Shown in pieces: positions 201 through 11,423 of a stretch of DNA of 30,584 bases. The notes beneath the pieces were generated by a model, which was given only the letters and a program-made list of their open reading frames with translations, was not told where the DNA came from and ran no database searches. The stretch comes from Escherichia phage ESSI2_ev015. The first letter of the stretch is position 1. Each line of letters begins with the position of its first letter. The stretch lies in the sequence record NC_049395.1. One strand, given 5' to 3'. Position numbers and translations under genes: made by a program.

Positions 201-224
201 TAAAAAAGCCCGCATTATGCGGGC
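201..224 (-). terminator. Rho-independent terminator ending the late (tail) operon
   Basis: Perfect 7-bp stem GCCCGCA/TGCGGGC with 3-nt loop at 208-224, followed on the - strand by a U-run (plus AAAAAA 202-207); lies just downstream of the stop of the 567-aa gene. Confidence 0.6.
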
Positions 225-236
225 GTATGGTCATGG

Positions 237-1940
237 TCAGGCAATTATATTCTGGTACTTGCTCCGGGTCTGCCCGGCTTTCGTCGCCGTCTGTGTAAAC
301 TCGGCGGCATTGGTTGGAGTCCCAACGGTGGGGTGTGAATGGTTCGCGCATTGCTGCGCCAGTTCTGCCAGTAAATCAATAGTGTCCAGCATCATGGTCA
401 GGGCGTTGATACTCTCGCTGCCAATATGGACAGTTGCCCCCATGACCTGCTGACCGCCAGCGGCCACTGATTTACGCAGTGCGGCAATCTTCTCTGTCAG
501 GCTTTCGCCAACCTCCACGGCTACAGCACCGCCCACTTTAGTGGACTGCTGTCCTGCTATGTCCGTTTCTTCGTTTCCTTCAATACTGGCCAGCCTGTTT
601 CCTTTCACCGCCTGGCTATAATCACCGGCGCTTACCTGCTGGATGGCTCCGGCCAGCAGTGTGGCGGTTCCCAGTACCGTGGTTTTATCCGTGGCTTTCA
701 CCGTGGTTTCACGGCTGACCAGTTCGCGCTGTTCCGTATCGGCTTTTACGGTTCGCGCCATCGATGTTTCGCTGATGGTCTGATCGGTCTGCCTTACCCA
801 GTCGCCCGCCTGAGTCACCCTCTGGGATACTTCTTCCCGCTGCTGCTGCAACTGTTCACCGGGTTTAACGTCCGGCAGACTGGTGCCATCCGGTAGCGTC
901 TGCCTGATAAAAGGTTTATCCGGTCTGCCTCCCGTGAATGCAACCTCAACCAGCGTCCCTTCTGGCGGAAACTGAAACATACCTGAATCATTCCCGGCCA
1001 TTGGTACCGGCAGCGGCACCGCTGAATAAACAGGCGTCTGATTGTCCGGGTTTCCGTCTGCGTCAAGCAGCTGCACGTCCACGGCGTAACGTGGCCGAAA
1101 GGGATCGGCAAAGTTACCGCTTTTTACCGGCTCTGAATGCGCCACGACTCTGGCCATCTTTGGCAAATGAAGCCCGGATGCCAGTTCCGGGTAATGGCTT
1201 TCAATCTGCCGTTGCGCCGGTGTTTTCTGCAAAGGTTTACCCGTTGCGCGGTTTCTCGGCGTCCATGTGATCGCCATCGTGTCATTAGTCAGGTGAACTT
1301 TAGTCACGCGTTCACCGTTCATCTCCACCCCTGGCCGCATAGTCTGGATCACTGGTAATGTCACAGAGTTACCGCCAGCAGCCCCCTGGCTGAACTCTGA
1401 CGGGATTTCTACGTGACGACCGGCAAACAATGACTTTTCTGCGCCGCCGACGTAAAGCGAACCATCAGGCAACTGGTACCAGATGTAATCCAGGATACTG
1501 AACGCCCTGCCCAGATTGTTCAGCAACTGATAACCAGTACCGTTATGGGTAAAATGTGGGATGGGGGTATCGCTGTACTGTGCATCAGGCACACTGACCG
1601 TGATCCCGCTGTTTTCTTCCAACCAGCCCGCAATTTCACGCAAAGTCGGGTGTTGAAACGAACATGGCCACATCCTTTCAAACACACCTACCAGCTCACG
1701 AATGAACAGACGCTGAAAACCGTTTTCTGCGGGCTGCGATCGCTCCACATACCCCGTAAACCAGCGCAAAAGCAGATCGGTATACCCCACATCCAGCCGC
1801 ACCAGTTTTCCGGTGTAATCGGTTGTTGTCTCTGCGGTGATGAAGCCCCGGCCGCAGCTGTTCAGCTCCAGTACCAGGCTGGCATCCACCAGGTGAACTT
1901 CATCCGTTGAAAGGTAAAGGCGTTTTACTGGTTTCATCAT
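237..1940 (-). CDS. Putative baseplate hub/central spike fusion (gpD+gpV-like, VgrG-like)
   Basis: 567 aa, last gene of late operon. Residues ~310-345 (MFQFPPEGTLVEVAFTGGRPDKPFI) resemble the gpV/gp5 OB-fold spike motif; helical C-terminal region ends in HSHPTVGTPTN (His-containing tip). Start ATG overlaps stop of upstream gene by 1 nt. Assignment by motif and position, not by search. Confidence 0.45.
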   Translation of the reverse strand: MMKPVKRLYLSTDEVHLVDASLVLELNSCGRGFITAETTTDYTGKLVRLDVGYTDLLLRWFTGYVERSQPAENGFQRLFIRELVGVFERMWPCSFQHPTLREIAGWLEENSGITVSVPDAQYSDTPIPHFTHNGTGYQLLNNLGRAFSILDYIWYQLPDGSLYVGGAEKSLFAGRHVEIPSEFSQGAAGGNSVTLPVIQTMRPGVEMNGERVTKVHLTNDTMAITWTPRNRATGKPLQKTPAQRQIESHYPELASGLHLPKMARVVAHSEPVKSGNFADPFRPRYAVDVQLLDADGNPDNQTPVYSAVPLPVPMAGNDSGMFQFPPEGTLVEVAFTGGRPDKPFIRQTLPDGTSLPDVKPGEQLQQQREEVSQRVTQAGDWVRQTDQTISETSMARTVKADTEQRELVSRETTVKATDKTTVLGTATLLAGAIQQVSAGDYSQAVKGNRLASIEGNEETDIAGQQSTKVGGAVAVEVGESLTEKIAALRKSVAAGGQQVMGATVHIGSESINALTMMLDTIDLLAELAQQCANHSHPTVGTPTNAAEFTQTATKAGQTRSKYQNIIA

Positions 1941-2485
1941 TAACCCAAAGCATCATTGACGGGCTTCAGCACTTTGCGTTCAAACCACGTCAGTTTTTCT
2001 TCATCTTCTCCGGCAGACTGGCCACCGGACTGTCCCACACTACCGGCAGTCTGTTTTTTTGCGGTCGTCTTACCTGTTGCCCTGGCCTCTCGCTTTTCCT
2101 GCACGCTGATATGTTCCGCCAGTGTGAATGTCACCAGCCAGGCCATTTTCCCGTCCTGCTGGGGTGCATCCAGCATTCCGCTGAACGTTGCTTCACGAAA
2201 ATTAACAGCACGGGCAACTTCATGCGCCACTCGGTACTTCTGACGATTACCACTGGCATCGGTAGCACTGGCCAGTTCAAAAATACGCTTCAGTATTTCA
2301 GGCTGTTTAAAAGGTATTTCACCGCTGATCCGCAGTTCCTTTCCCTTTGCTCCCTGCTCTGATTTTGTTGTGGCACTGGTCTGGCCGGACTGATCTTTAT
2401 CCTGAAATTGCTGTGAAACAGTCACCCGCATGTTTTTCAGCTGGATGGCTTCGCCATTAAGCGCCAGTGTCGGGATCGAAGTCAT
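1940..2485 (-). CDS. Uncharacterized late-operon protein (181 aa)
   Basis: ATG with AAGGGA Shine-Dalgarno upstream; overlaps upstream ORF by 29 nt and downstream gene by 1 nt (translationally coupled). No motif I can assign. Confidence 0.5.
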   Translation of the reverse strand: MTSIPTLALNGEAIQLKNMRVTVSQQFQDKDQSGQTSATTKSEQGAKGKELRISGEIPFKQPEILKRIFELASATDASGNRQKYRVAHEVARAVNFREATFSGMLDAPQQDGKMAWLVTFTLAEHISVQEKREARATGKTTAKKQTAGSVGQSGGQSAGEDEEKLTWFERKVLKPVNDALG

Positions 2486-3182
2486 GAATCATTCCCTTTA
2501 TTCCATCAAGATTATCGCCAACCAGCATCATGGCAGCTGTGTAAACGGCAGACTGCTGCGGAATGTCCTTCACCAGTTCCAGTAACGTGGTACCGGTGTC
2601 TCCGCTGGCAGTAAAAACCCACGCTCTGGCACTCTTCCCCTGTAAATCATTCAGGCCGCTGGCCACATCACTGATAAGCTGGTCACGCAGCTGCGTGAAC
2701 TCGCCCAGCTGTTTTTTCAGCCCTTCGATATCAAACCCGGCACCCGCCGCCTTTTGTGCCTGGCTGATTGCCGCAGCAGATAAAGCTGCCCTGCTGGTTG
2801 GTACAGACAGCGGAATGGACGCAGGTAACGCAGCGGCGGTTTTCGCAGGGATCTGCATCTTTTCAATAGCCAGCGCTGCGGCGGATTGCGCCAGCCGTTT
2901 GACCTGCATGAATGCCGGGGCGGGGAAAATCCCGACCAGGTTATTCAGGCTGGCCATAAAGTTTTCCTGCGTCTGTCCGGTGACCATCATAATCACCACA
3001 TCCGCATTCCCCCCTGTTCCGGCCAGGCGTTCAGCAAGATAGCGAACGGCATTAACCGGGCTGAGATATGCCCCGTTCGCTGTCTGCTGTCCCAGCCCAT
3101 AAATCCACGGATGCGCAGGGACGATCGAACAGTTCAGCGCAGCAACAGAATCCGTGAAGGCCAGACGTGCTTCACGCCACAT
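2457..3182 (-). CDS. Uncharacterized late-operon protein (~241 aa)
   Basis: Track ORF 2457-3218; internal ATG at 3182 (MWREARL...) preferred because it has a GGAGG Shine-Dalgarno and overlaps the tail-fibre-assembly stop by only ~11 nt. No recognisable motif. Confidence 0.45.
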   Translation of the reverse strand: MWREARLAFTDSVAALNCSIVPAHPWIYGLGQQTANGAYLSPVNAVRYLAERLAGTGGNADVVIMMVTGQTQENFMASLNNLVGIFPAPAFMQVKRLAQSAAALAIEKMQIPAKTAAALPASIPLSVPTSRAALSAAAISQAQKAAGAGFDIEGLKKQLGEFTQLRDQLISDVASGLNDLQGKSARAWVFTASGDTGTTLLELVKDIPQQSAVYTAAMMLVGDNLDGIKGMIHDFDPDTGA

Positions 3183-3759
3183 TTCCGGGCACCTCCGGCC
3201 ACACAATTTCCGGCGCATCTTCCGGTTGAATACGGTTCAGTAAAACGCGGTATTTTTTCCATGCGGTAAGCAGCAGTGCTTCTTCTTCGGTCGCCATGTC
3301 TAAATCAACGGCATCCTGCAATGTGGCAATAGCGTCATTGGCCTGTTTAAGCAGTCTTTTCTTTTCGGCGTCTGCCTCGCTGACTAATGCAATTCGCATG
3401 GCCTCCGCATCATCCACCCACGCCTTACCATTCCATTTTTGCCAGGCATTAGCCGGTGCTAACGTGGTTGTCCCTTCCGGGTAAGCGCCTGGCTCGGTGA
3501 TCACCAGTTCATTACCGTTTTCTGTATCAAACACCACCTCACCACGATGATCCTCACGGGAAATCCATCTTTGCTTCTCTGAATCAAAAATTGCCACAAA
3601 CCCCGCTTTGTTTACCGGTGGTTTTATTGTGGTGCAGTTGGCTGGCAGTCCGGTATGCGCAGGTATAAAAGCGTCACCCGAACCAATAAATTCATTCGTG
3701 TCTGAACGCAGGTTATAAACAGTAACTGTTTGATCGGTTTCACTCATTTTAAAAGTCAT
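3172..3759 (-). CDS. Tail fibre assembly chaperone (Tfa/gpG-like)
   Basis: 195 aa directly after the tail fibre gene with TAATG stop/start overlap; size, position and C-terminal region typical of tail fibre assembly proteins. Confidence 0.65.
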   Translation of the reverse strand: MTFKMSETDQTVTVYNLRSDTNEFIGSGDAFIPAHTGLPANCTTIKPPVNKAGFVAIFDSEKQRWISREDHRGEVVFDTENGNELVITEPGAYPEGTTTLAPANAWQKWNGKAWVDDAEAMRIALVSEADAEKKRLLKQANDAIATLQDAVDLDMATEEEALLLTAWKKYRVLLNRIQPEDAPEIVWPEVPGNVA

Positions 3760-5343: not shown

Positions 5344-5931
5344 TTACAAACTCGCGCTGAATGTTGCGCTGCGGGCTTCCGTCCCTGCTAACGTCGCCGG
5401 GTAAACCACATATTCCCCCTGATCCCACCCAGCCCTGATAACCAGGCTTTCAGACGTGATCACCTCAAACTGATAACGGCGGCATGTTCGCCCGTACTGG
5501 CGGATTATCTGGATCAGCAACTGCGTGTTGTCTGCAATCTGGCTGTCTGTAACCCGAACCAGAATCACATCCCAGTCGATACCCGGTTGCCGTTCTAACA
5601 GCTCCACATAACCAATCCCCAGCCGTTCAAAGATATTGATAAACCCCTCTACTGAACCGGCATCCCGCGCATTCACAAAGGCAAAAGCCACGCGTTTGCG
5701 GAACAGGGTCAACGGTTCACCATCAAAGCGGGTGATATCCCGGTCATAAGCCAGCAGGTTCAGTAATGCCGGTGTACACGTCAGCGGATCAAACTGATTC
5801 ATTGGCCAGGTAACCCAGCCGTAAACCTCAGCCCAGAACCGCCGCGCCGTTTTCAGCAATTTCCCCGGTTCGCCTTTATTCATCCAGGAAGGCAAGACCA
5901 TCCCGGCCAGCTTTTTCATGAACTCATTCAT
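5344..5931 (-). CDS. Baseplate/tail protein (gpI / Mu gp48-like)
   Basis: Track ORF begins with TTG at 5937; nearest ATG at 5931 (MNEFMKK...) chosen; sits between the J-like gene and the tail fibre. Family assignment by position only. Confidence 0.45.
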
Positions 5932-7108
5932 TCTCAATATTCACCGTCAGTGATTTCAGACGCGGCACGCTCAGTTCGCTGGTAATGTCTCCCAACGAAA
6001 ATGTCAGTGATTCCGTCTGCGCAAAGGTTTTATGAATTTCCCGCCCCAGTTGCGAAAAGGAAAACCGCGAATATGGCCATGTCTTTCTGACGTCATAATC
6101 AGCATTTTCACGAAAGGCACAGCGGATCATGTTTTCAATGCCGCCCTTCAGCGTTTTCACTTCTTCATCACTGAAGTTGTTCAGATTTTTGACATAAACC
6201 GTGACGACCAGATCGTGAAGCGTTTCCGGCATGGGATAGCACTGCATATCATCACCATGCCCGTGGTGTCCCTGCGTGTTGATATAGTCATTCACCGCAT
6301 CCACGAACGGCGCTGATGCCACACCACTGTCCAGTAATAAAAAGGCGTTGGCTGTTCCTGGCCCCCTCGGTGCTTCATGCTCAAAGAAAATCCGATCGAT
6401 ACTCAACCCGGCAACACTGGCGATCATTGAGCGATAAACCGCATCAGTGTGGTAATTCCCCACCAGATTGAACTGATTGCGGCAACGCTCGCGCAGTTCA
6501 TCATCACTTTCCTCGTCAGCCCCCGGCACGGTCAGCCAGTTTTCCTCACTGGCTACATGGCTGATACCGCTGACCGCCACCGGCAGAATGCGGTAATATC
6601 CGGGCGCAAGGTTATACGCGCCCCCGGTGCCGGTGGCTTTCACTGGCAGTAATGCGCTGGCCGCACCGGAAGCGATCACCACATCCTCAGTGGTGGCCAG
6701 CTCATACACTCGCCCGTTAATGCGTTCTGTCTGGATAATCGTCCCGGCTTTGACCGTCACAACGGCCTTTGCATCTTCTTTGAAGAAGCGGATCATCCCC
6801 TGTGCAGCGCTCGCCGGTTTTGCCGTGACGTTCACCGCCCAGGCCAGCAGACGCAACATGCTCCCGCTGGCTGTGGCCACAAACATATTGGCCAGCACGG
6901 TTAACACCAGAACGTCTTTAAGCCACATCACCGGGGCGGTCACAATGGCGGTGATTAATCGCCAGAACGGTGACATTCGGGATGTATTGGTGATAATTCC
7001 CTCATCTGCTGCAATCGCATTGAAGCGTTCCCGCACTTCGGCTTCCGTTACCGGCATACCGCTATCTTTCACCACTTCTTCAAAATCAACCTGCGGTTTT
7101 TCCGTCAT
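5924..7108 (-). CDS. Baseplate J-like protein (gpJ / Mu gp47-like)
   Basis: Track start is GTG; ATG at 7108 (MTEKPQVDFEEV...) has AGGTGGA Shine-Dalgarno and an ATGA overlap with the upstream stop. ~394 aa, position and size fit baseplate wedge J. Confidence 0.55.
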   Translation of the reverse strand: MTEKPQVDFEEVVKDSGMPVTEAEVRERFNAIAADEGIITNTSRMSPFWRLITAIVTAPVMWLKDVLVLTVLANMFVATASGSMLRLLAWAVNVTAKPASAAQGMIRFFKEDAKAVVTVKAGTIIQTERINGRVYELATTEDVVIASGAASALLPVKATGTGGAYNLAPGYYRILPVAVSGISHVASEENWLTVPGADEESDDELRERCRNQFNLVGNYHTDAVYRSMIASVAGLSIDRIFFEHEAPRGPGTANAFLLLDSGVASAPFVDAVNDYINTQGHHGHGDDMQCYPMPETLHDLVVTVYVKNLNNFSDEEVKTLKGGIENMIRCAFRENADYDVRKTWPYSRFSFSQLGREIHKTFAQTESLTFSLGDITSELSVPRLKSLTVNIENE

Positions 7109-7434
7109 AAATCCACCTGCGCAGAGATCCCGCCAAAATCGTATGTACTCGCGGTTACCCACAGCCGCTTCTGACTTTCTTCACTGATTTCCACCGTACC
7201 CGGCACAATGCGTTCATCATCTTCAATCAGTAATTCCATGCGGGTAAAAATATCCGCTCTCATTGTCGGGCTACGTTCGGCAATTAATTCCGTCGCTAAC
7301 CCACTTTCAATAATGGAATGAATAATGTCCTGCCCGATACTTTTTCGGTTATTACATAATTCAGGTTCATTACCGGTATTCAGAACAAAGTCACCGCCCT
7401 GAATCAGCAAATCGATATAAAGAACATCACTCAT
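7105..7434 (-). CDS. Small baseplate protein (gpW / gp25 / Mu gp46-like)
   Basis: ~109 aa; ATG at 7434 overlaps tape-measure stop (ATGA) with AGGAG upstream; immediately precedes the J-like gene as in P2 W-J. Confidence 0.45.
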   Translation of the reverse strand: MSDVLYIDLLIQGGDFVLNTGNEPELCNNRKSIGQDIIHSIIESGLATELIAERSPTMRADIFTRMELLIEDDERIVPGTVEISEESQKRLWVTASTYDFGGISAQVDL

Positions 7435-9398
7435 GCGCCAAGCTCCTGCCATTCCATAAGCTGGGATGGAGAAAGTGCTTCTTTGGTATGGAAATGCACT
7501 TCACCAATTTTCCGGCTGTTATCGGTTACGGATTTACTGTTGCTGCTGATTGTTTTGCTGATACCACCTTTATCCACACCTTTTAAATCACCACCCGTTG
7601 ACAGTGTATTTCCGGTTAATGGCTGCGTGGTTTCACTGGCCAGTGAAATATCCACGCCGGGAATTTTATTCAGTTTCTGAACAATCCAGTTCCACGACTT
7701 AAGAAATCCCCCTTTGATTGACTTCCAGACATTATCAAACAGCGACATAATGCCGGTGGCCATTCCCTTTAGCGCCTCAGACGGTGAAAATCCTGTCAGC
7801 AAAGAAATAAAGCTGTTCCATCCTTCACTGATATATTGCCAGGCTGAAGCAAAGATCCCCGCCAGCCATTTCACCACGGCGGCACATGTCTGGAAGGCTT
7901 CGGTATTCACCACCGCTGTTTTTATCGTGTCCCAGTGCTTAACCAGCAGATAACAACCGGCAACCAGCAGTGCAATGGCACCAATCACAAGCAGGATCGG
8001 CCAGCTCATCAGGTTGATACCAATTCCGGCCATTATTGCGGCCATGCGTACCGCCAGTAACGCACCGCGCAAGAACTTCAGCGTGGTATTCCAGGCGATT
8101 ACCGCTATTTGTGCCAGCCAGACAGTGGCCGTGTAGATTTTAGTAACCGCCGTTAACGCCACCCAGACCCCGCGCAATCCCATCATGATGAATCTGGATA
8201 CCCCCATCACGATATTGGCCACCGCACCCACGGCGGCAAAGCTCAGTAATGCCATCGACGCATAACCAATCACACGGGCAATGTTAGGAAATAACTGCAT
8301 CCAGCGGGCAAAGGTCTGCCCCATATCAGCCAGGCGATTCAGAACCGGATACAGCACCGGGATCAACGTCAGTCCGATCACGGTTTGAATGGCTTTCAGA
8401 ATTTGCACAAAGCGATCCCACGGCTTAACCATTTTTTGTGCCATTTCCTGGGTACGCTTCAGGCCGTCCGCGCCGCCCAGTTCGGTGATGTTCCGCTGAA
8501 GTAACGCGACATTGCCGTAAAGATGTTTAACCACTGCCGAACTGTCACCAAAGGCTGCATCCAGCTCCGCCTGGGCTTTCAGGTTCCCTTCAAGGCTTTT
8601 GCCATATTTGCCCTGCAACTTGATCAGCATTTCAGGCATGGACAGCATTTTGCCGGTAGAGTCAGTAAAGGACAGCCCCAGCTTTTTAGCGCCATCAATC
8701 GCACCGGTCATAAACCCTTCATAGGCGCTGCTGGCTTCCGTTCCCAGCGTCCGCTGAAGTTGCCCCAGCACGGCCAGCTGTTCATCCAGCCCCACGCCGT
8801 AGTTAGTCCCGACACCGCGCGCACCTTCCATCAAATCCTTGATAGTGGCCATTTCTGTGCCAAAGGTTTTGCGCATATAAACCATCTTGCCCGCCAGCTG
8901 TTCGGCAAATTCAACCTTACCCAGTCTGGCCGCATCGGCGGAAAAGTTACCGAACATCTGCCCCATAAATTCCGCCGTGTCCGCCGCAGTGGACTTGAGC
9001 GCAAACGCCAGGGTATTGGCGACTTTCGTCACCTTCGGCAGCTCATTACCCGTCAGTCCGGCAATGGAAGCGTTAATATTTTCCGTGGATCTAACGAACT
9101 CCACCGCGCTTGCGCCATAGGTTGTACTGAAACGCAGGGCATCACGCTGAACTGTCTTAAGCGCGGAATCATCGATCCCTTTTGCGGCGGCATCATTCAG
9201 CGCGTCATACATTTCAATTGCCGGTGATAACGCGCCTTTGATCGCCATCCCGACACCGGCCAGCGCCACCGCGCCGCCGCCAATCTGCATAAAGGCCGCT
9301 TTTGATTTTTCCGCAAAGCCGGTGACGTTACCCTGCGCCTGTTTTAACGGGCGGGATAATTTATCAATCAGGCTTAATGTAAAATCTAATTGTTTCAT
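7431..9398 (-). CDS. Tail tape measure protein
   Basis: 655 aa, Ala/Gly-rich helical N-terminal half plus hydrophobic segments (e.g. LLSFAAVGAVANIVMGV); lies directly downstream of the frameshifting chaperone pair. Confidence 0.8.
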   Translation of the reverse strand: MKQLDFTLSLIDKLSRPLKQAQGNVTGFAEKSKAAFMQIGGGAVALAGVGMAIKGALSPAIEMYDALNDAAAKGIDDSALKTVQRDALRFSTTYGASAVEFVRSTENINASIAGLTGNELPKVTKVANTLAFALKSTAADTAEFMGQMFGNFSADAARLGKVEFAEQLAGKMVYMRKTFGTEMATIKDLMEGARGVGTNYGVGLDEQLAVLGQLQRTLGTEASSAYEGFMTGAIDGAKKLGLSFTDSTGKMLSMPEMLIKLQGKYGKSLEGNLKAQAELDAAFGDSSAVVKHLYGNVALLQRNITELGGADGLKRTQEMAQKMVKPWDRFVQILKAIQTVIGLTLIPVLYPVLNRLADMGQTFARWMQLFPNIARVIGYASMALLSFAAVGAVANIVMGVSRFIMMGLRGVWVALTAVTKIYTATVWLAQIAVIAWNTTLKFLRGALLAVRMAAIMAGIGINLMSWPILLVIGAIALLVAGCYLLVKHWDTIKTAVVNTEAFQTCAAVVKWLAGIFASAWQYISEGWNSFISLLTGFSPSEALKGMATGIMSLFDNVWKSIKGGFLKSWNWIVQKLNKIPGVDISLASETTQPLTGNTLSTGGDLKGVDKGGISKTISSNSKSVTDNSRKIGEVHFHTKEALSPSQLMEWQELGA

Positions 9399-10967: not shown

Positions 10968-11423
10968 TTATCCGATCAGGTTTTCTGTGGCTTCCGCTTC
11001 CAGATACGGCACACCGTTGATGTTGACGAATTTCGGACTGGTCACGAAATATTTGATTTTGTGCGTGGTCACACCGCCACCTTTCGGATCAATATCCAGC
11101 AGGTTGCTGACCTGCAATTTATTGCCGAACGTCTCCACCTTCATTTCTTCACTACTGGCTTTGGCATAGAAAAGAAAATCAAGTGGGGGAAGTCCGCGCC
11201 ATGAACCCGCTGCGCGGGCTTTGGCTGTCAGCACCTGAAGTGTTTTTGAACTGACTTCAATTTCCCCTTCGGCGGCAACATCGCCGTCCACATACCCGTC
11301 AGGGACACCACGCGTCTGGGCGGCAGCGCTGTTATCCGTAATATCGAGCGTGATTTTCTCGATATGGATTAGATCGCCGTCCATATAGGTGTCAAACGAC
11401 ATACCCGAAATACGTTTGGTCAT
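10968..11423 (-). CDS. Tail tube protein (putative)
   Basis: 151 aa directly downstream of the sheath-like gene with ATGA overlap; size and position fit the tube of a contractile tail. Family not verified. Confidence 0.5.
   Translation of the reverse strand: MTKRISGMSFDTYMDGDLIHIEKITLDITDNSAAAQTRGVPDGYVDGDVAAEGEIEVSSKTLQVLTAKARAAGSWRGLPPLDFLFYAKASSEEMKVETFGNKLQVSNLLDIDPKGGGVTTHKIKYFVTSPKFVNINGVPYLEAEATENLIG

Follow-up and report, generated by a model that had tools for sequence, protein, structure and literature searches.

The late tail operon of the ESSI-2-like prophage

The stretch of DNA analysed here (the window; 30,584 nucleotides, Escherichia phage ESSI2_ev015, NC_049395.1) is an ESSI-2-like E. 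coli prophage of the HP1 subgroup of Peduoviridae, and Escherichia phages ESSI2_ev129, ev239 and ev040 show 96-98% identity to it. Its tail module is of the HP1 type and not of the P2 type, and the features of this module that are relevant for the present analysis are listed in Table 1. The baseplate wedge block, formed by the DUF2590, Baseplate_J and gpI-like genes, extends over 5344..7452 on the minus strand; in HP1, orf28, orf29 and orf30 are described in the literature as gpW, gpJ and gpI, respectively. The 567-aa product of the last gene is a gpD-like hub fused with a gpV-like spike and as such is VgrG-like. Its matches in the PDB were the T4 gp5 beta-helix and VgrG, and its HP1 counterpart orf35 has been described as a gpD-gpV fusion (PMC10612066).

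Table 1. Features of the late tail operon in the window, ordered by position.
Feature	Position	Strand	Evidence and remarks
Intrinsic terminator closing the late tail operon	208..224	-	7-bp stem, 6 GC, then T6
Hub-spike gene, 567 aa, HP1 orf35 homologue	237..1940	-	phrog_2258, E 2e-276; Pfam Phage_base_V and Gp5_C
181-aa ORF, HP1 orf34 homologue	1940..2485	-	ATG 2485, TAA 1942-1940
241-aa ORF, HP1 orf33 homologue (phrog_1677)	2457..3182	-	ATG 3182, TAA 2459-2457
Tail-fibre assembly gene (tfa, Caudo_TAP)	3172..3759	-	Pfam PF02413, E 5e-36
Shine-Dalgarno sequence GGAGG of the 241-aa ORF	3192..3196	-	read in the sequence; 9 nt 5' of the ATG
gpI-like gene	5344-5937	-	Pfam PF09684
Baseplate_J gene	5924-7162	-	Pfam PF04865
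DUF2590 gene, gpW-like sheath initiator	7105-7452	-	Pfam PF10761
Major tail tube gene (HP1 Orf24 family)	10968..11423	-	Pfam PF10772, E 8e-64

Between tfa and the hub-spike gene, two open reading frames encode proteins of 241 and 181 amino acids, hereafter named orf33 and orf34 after their HP1 homologues. The original prediction had described both of them, and their coordinates, overlaps and translational coupling were confirmed on the minus strand. The frame of tfa, whose stop ends at 3172, shares 11 nt with the start of the 241-aa ORF, the 241-aa and 181-aa ORFs share 29 nt, and the stop of the 181-aa ORF forms a TAATG with the start of the 567-aa ORF, in which one base (1940) is common to both. 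An alternative 253-aa version that would begin at the in-frame ATG at 3218 was rejected, as the N-terminus of the family is MW; residue W2 was kept in 92% of 73 diverse orf33-family members. Hundreds of homologues exist for the 241-aa and 181-aa proteins, and dN/dS values, 0.04-0.14 over both genes and similar to those of gpI and orf35, amounted to 0.08-0.14 for the 241-aa gene and to 0.04-0.08 for the 181-aa gene. With these numerous homologues and low dN/dS values, both ORFs are real genes. Their GC content of 0.52-0.55 matches that of the neighbouring genes and no shift in composition was observed. In public records, the genes are annotated as 'hypothetical' or, wrongly, as 'adenine glycosylase' or 'nucleoid DNA-binding protein'.

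The placement of both genes at the 3' end of the late operon, which had also been predicted, was upheld. Between tfa and the spike gene, nothing resembling a terminator with a strong stem was found, and a strong terminator follows the spike gene, its stem-T6 structure lying 13 nt past the hub-spike stop; therefore, the 241-aa, 181-aa and spike genes all belong to the late operon. In phage K139, a terminator is annotated at the position equivalent to the 208..224 site of the window.

The 181-aa protein is predicted to have a tail-tube fold

In the original prediction neither protein had been assigned to a recognisable family. This holds for the 241-aa protein with regard to Pfam and NCBIfam but not for the 181-aa protein, which matches Pfam PF25759 ('HP1 ORF34 baseplate complex protein') over its full length with an E value of 7.5e-55 (185.8 bits, with the gathering cut-off at 27; 2-176 of the 180 profile positions). 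With 41% identity to HP1 orf34, the same length and the same place between orf33 and the hub-spike gene, it is an ordinary member of the HP1 orf34 family (PF25759, phrog_1398).

The structural model of the 181-aa protein consists of a tail-tube fold (residues 1-127), a disordered linker (residues 128-161; pLDDT < 50) and a C-terminal helix (residues 167-179). It was closest to the baseplate tube initiators or ripcords Pa193 gp38, Pam3 gp17 and pyocin PA0626, and the N-terminal tail-tube beta-barrel that defines this class is present in the predicted structure. P2 gpU and the Pa193 proteins ripcord-1 and ripcord-2 are further known representatives close to it. PA0626 differs by an N-terminal extension of 158 residues that is absent from the 181-aa protein. 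The motif of the C-terminal helix was kept in 5-6 of 10 diverse homologues and was missing in K139, C5a and ACA2.

At the sequence level, similarity between the 181-aa protein and P2 gpU or its family PF06995 was not detectable. No Pfam match to PF06995 was obtained at E values up to 0.1, the comparison of the 181-aa family with P2 gpU by hhalign gave a probability of 0.2%, and a phmmer search with gpU against the ORFs of the window returned no match. Likewise, alignments of orf34 with P2 gpU, FII, gpD and Mu gp43 by hhalign, using single-sequence templates, gave no signal. A link between HP1 orf34 and gpU obtained by HHpred, at 15% identity, has been termed 'uncertain' (PMC10612066). P2 gpU matched PA0626 with an E value of 3e-13, and P2 gpX matched the 'glue' protein PA0627 with an E value of 2e-8; by sequence, PA0626 is a homologue of P2 gpU.

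Among the genes of the window, none was detectably similar to gpU, gpX, gpD or gpV, and the major tail tube gene is separate from the 181-aa tube-fold gene; therefore, an initiator would otherwise be missing from the window. From the modelled fold we infer that the 181-aa protein is the tube initiator or 'ripcord' of the baseplate, P2 gpU-like by fold. The suggestion that one of the two proteins might be the tube initiator that this tail seemed to lack is thereby supported for the 181-aa protein, for which we also found a structural match to a conserved tail component, set beforehand as a counter-test of the original prediction. That the 181-aa protein is a second ('baseplate') tube layer or a tube-like adaptor, and not an initiator or ripcord proper, seems quite improbable to us.

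The 241-aa protein is a member of the HP1 orf33 family

The 241-aa protein matched phrog_1677 with an E value of 3e-76, and tblastn searches retrieved HP1 orf33 (E 6e-13) as well as K139 orf37 and YenM_324 gp33. The profile match, together with the location of the gene directly upstream of orf34, places the protein in the HP1 orf33 family (phrog_1677; Swiss-Prot P51737; ACA1 gp46); it is 24% identical to HP1 orf33 over the full length and shares with the family the position in the operon and the sequence YLSPxNA. The latter is part of a longer motif conserved in the N-terminal region (residues 24-45), HPW-x3-G-x-G-x5-G-x-YLSP-x-NA. In K139-type members, some 55 additional residues are inserted close to the N-terminus.

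Searches with the 241-aa protein gave no match in Pfam, NCBIfam, PDB (phmmer and profile) or PADLOC, and 73 members of the orf33 family gave none in Pfam. When the family was compared by hhalign with 23 tail and head-completion proteins from P2 and Mu, the best probability was 4.9%, and no P2 homologue of orf33 was found in a published comparison (PMC10612066). The central region of the protein is of low complexity and predicted to be disordered. The AF2 model, obtained from an input alignment without diverse homologues, had a pLDDT of 51.6 and is unreliable. That a LysM-type protein might be encoded here, as had been proposed, found no support for either of the two proteins in Pfam, in hhalign comparisons with gpX or, for the 241-aa protein, in PDB profile searches: LysM or Phage_tail_X domains of Pfam were absent from the proteins of the window and from the 73 orf33-family members, and hhalign against the LysM protein gpX of P2 gave a probability of 0.4%. 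We also considered that orf33 might supply a domain that a short hub lacks, and rejected this as hhalign showed no similarity with gpD or Mu gp44.

Mass spectrometric analyses of ACA1 virions revealed the orf33 homologue gp46 with 2 spectra and 6% coverage, and in the same proteomics the orf34 homologue gp47 was not detected (PMC10612066 Table S2). For vB_YenM_324, K139 or HP1, usable proteomics was not found in the literature. By analogy, the 241-aa protein is probably a minor virion or baseplate-associated protein. A chaperone that assists the assembly of the hub or baseplate without being structural, and that would not be a stable component of the virion, might equally possess a disordered central region of low complexity, might be absent from one clade, as orf33 is (see below), and might account for a presence in ACA1 virions that rests on 2 spectra; we consider such a chaperone improbable. 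The original proposal that both genes encode divergent tail proteins was right in kind, and can now be specified by the tube fold modelled for the 181-aa protein.

The slot downstream of tfa is constant and lies outside the mosaic cassette

All 83 loci compared had the gene order orf33-orf34-orf35, as did phages phiO18P, phi3 and ACA2. In HP1, K139, vB_YenM_324, phiO18P, phi3 and ACA2, the slot after tfa is always filled by these three genes, and the same is true for 80 of 80 close IMG/VR loci. The longer order TMP-W-J-I-fibre-tfa-orf33-orf34-orf35 is common to HP1, YenM_324 and K139. In phiO18P, phi3, ACA2 and locus L086, orf33 immediately precedes orf34, and it adjoins orf34 on the upstream side in all K139-like (11/11) and phi3-like (4/4) loci. 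In this way both genes, in the same order, span phages of Haemophilus, Vibrio, Aeromonas and Pseudomonas.

In close loci, the identity of tfa falls to 32-59% with partial coverage, and that of orf33-35 remains at 73-96%. The swapped cassette comprises the C-terminal half of the fibre and tfa, and its boundary lies upstream of orf33. Tfa is the last gene of this mosaic host-range cassette, and the identity of orf33 follows that of orf34, orf35 and gpI.

These data bear on the idea, raised in the original prediction, that the pair might be accessory cargo for superinfection exclusion or anti-phage defence, inserted after tfa in a slot like that of P2 Z/fun. P2 fun(Z) follows gene G and is non-essential, and the 241-aa protein is without a recognisable Pfam or NCBIfam family, as might be expected for cargo. 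Although both slots come after tfa, fun(Z) is variable, resides on the opposite strand between two operons and has its own terminator region, whereas the window genes are conserved, are encoded within the operon on the strand of the tail genes, are translationally coupled and precede the operon terminator. The slot did not vary across relatives, its order being fixed in 83/83 loci and retained from Haemophilus through Vibrio, Aeromonas and Pseudomonas phages, and the mosaic boundary ends 5' of orf33. A PADLOC defence search at E values up to 0.1 gave no match for either gene, and the ordinary GC content, the tube fold modelled for the 181-aa protein and the orf33 homologue in ACA1 virions also argue against cargo. 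On the basis of these comparisons, the cargo reading is effectively refuted, and we regard it as highly improbable.

One clade presents a different situation. Nowhere in the genome of the isolated phage C5a was orf33 present, and it was found neither upstream nor downstream of orf34 in 52 of 52 C5a-like loci, as judged from up to 5 kb on either side of orf34 in those loci that had enough upstream sequence. Because of this absence, orf33 is not a universal requirement of the baseplate, and it is classified as an accessory rather than a universal baseplate protein. The C5a-like loci are also without tfa, and the joint loss of both genes could indicate a fibre-related role for orf33. The 241-aa protein might belong to the fibre system, as a Tfa-dependent fibre adaptor or as a second particle-bound fibre-assembly factor: its gene comes right after fibre and tfa, the C5a-like clade that lacks both orf33 and tfa has a different fibre type, and in the metagenomic phage L164 an orf33-like domain, encoded between tube and lysis genes, forms a fusion with a domain of 300 aa that has fibre-like Gly/Ala/Thr repeats. 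However, the C-terminal half of the fibre and tfa are exchanged between close relatives while orf33 stays, tracking orf34, orf35 and gpI; ACA1 and ACA2 retain orf33 with a DGR-diversified antireceptor and no Caudo_TAP tfa; and the joint absence in C5a may reflect one ancestral event. Membership in the fibre system is therefore considered unlikely, with a small but appreciable chance of being correct.

A proposed inner-baseplate block of HP1-type tails

From what is directly established (coding status, purifying selection, family membership, synteny, the tube fold modelled for the 181-aa protein and the place where the mosaic cassette ends), we propose that both genes probably encode fixed structural parts of the contractile-tail baseplate of the HP1 type, the 181-aa protein being the initiator and the 241-aa protein a probable accessory connector. 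Orf33, orf34 and orf35, with which the late tail operon ends, would constitute an inner-baseplate block. To our knowledge, no structure of an HP1-type baseplate has been solved. In the proposed arrangement, the N-terminal tube domain of the 181-aa protein would sit as a ring on the trimeric hub portion of the 567-aa protein, adapt the 3-fold symmetry of the hub to the 6-fold symmetry of the tube and serve as the nucleus from which the major tube protein polymerises around the tape measure. The linker and the C-terminal helix of the 181-aa protein may reach out to the wedge (J/I) or to the sheath initiator, as in Pam3 gp17 and PA0626.

The 241-aa protein would be a low-copy, HP1-subgroup-specific virion protein of the same stable baseplate block, and most likely it links the hub/initiator complex to the wedge as an accessory connector. 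It could be a functional counterpart of the 'plug' gp18 of Pam3 or of P2 gpX and the 'glue' PA0627, and the architecture of initiator, plug, hub and spike in Pam3 as well as their gene order have been described (PMC9942802). The likeness to P2 gpX, PA0627 (LysM) and Pam3 gp18 is one of analogy only, in that each is a small, low-copy third component whose gene neighbours those of the initiator and the hub. Those proteins fix the wedge to the hub and each of them is part of a minimal baseplate, whereas the 241-aa protein lacks a LysM domain, exceeds them 3-4 times in size and shows no detectable similarity to them. It is also conceivable, though we hold this only tentatively, that the orf33 family is a structurally new component of HP1-subgroup baseplates without a counterpart in P2, Mu, T4, pyocin or Pam3, and represents a modular attachment domain that is dispensable or relocatable, the C5a clade being without it and one phage having it fused to a displayed domain. 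If this were true, orf33 might link signalling by the fibres to the hub/initiator, or accessory domains might be mounted on the baseplate through it.

In summary, the expectation of defence cargo at this position is corrected, and annotation can be improved: orf34 may be annotated as a tube initiator of the baseplate (gpU-like by fold) and orf33 as a minor virion protein of the HP1 orf33 family. This family is the only conserved component of HP1-type baseplates without an assigned fold or role. The clean absence of orf33 from the C5a-like clade provides a natural comparison for working out that role.

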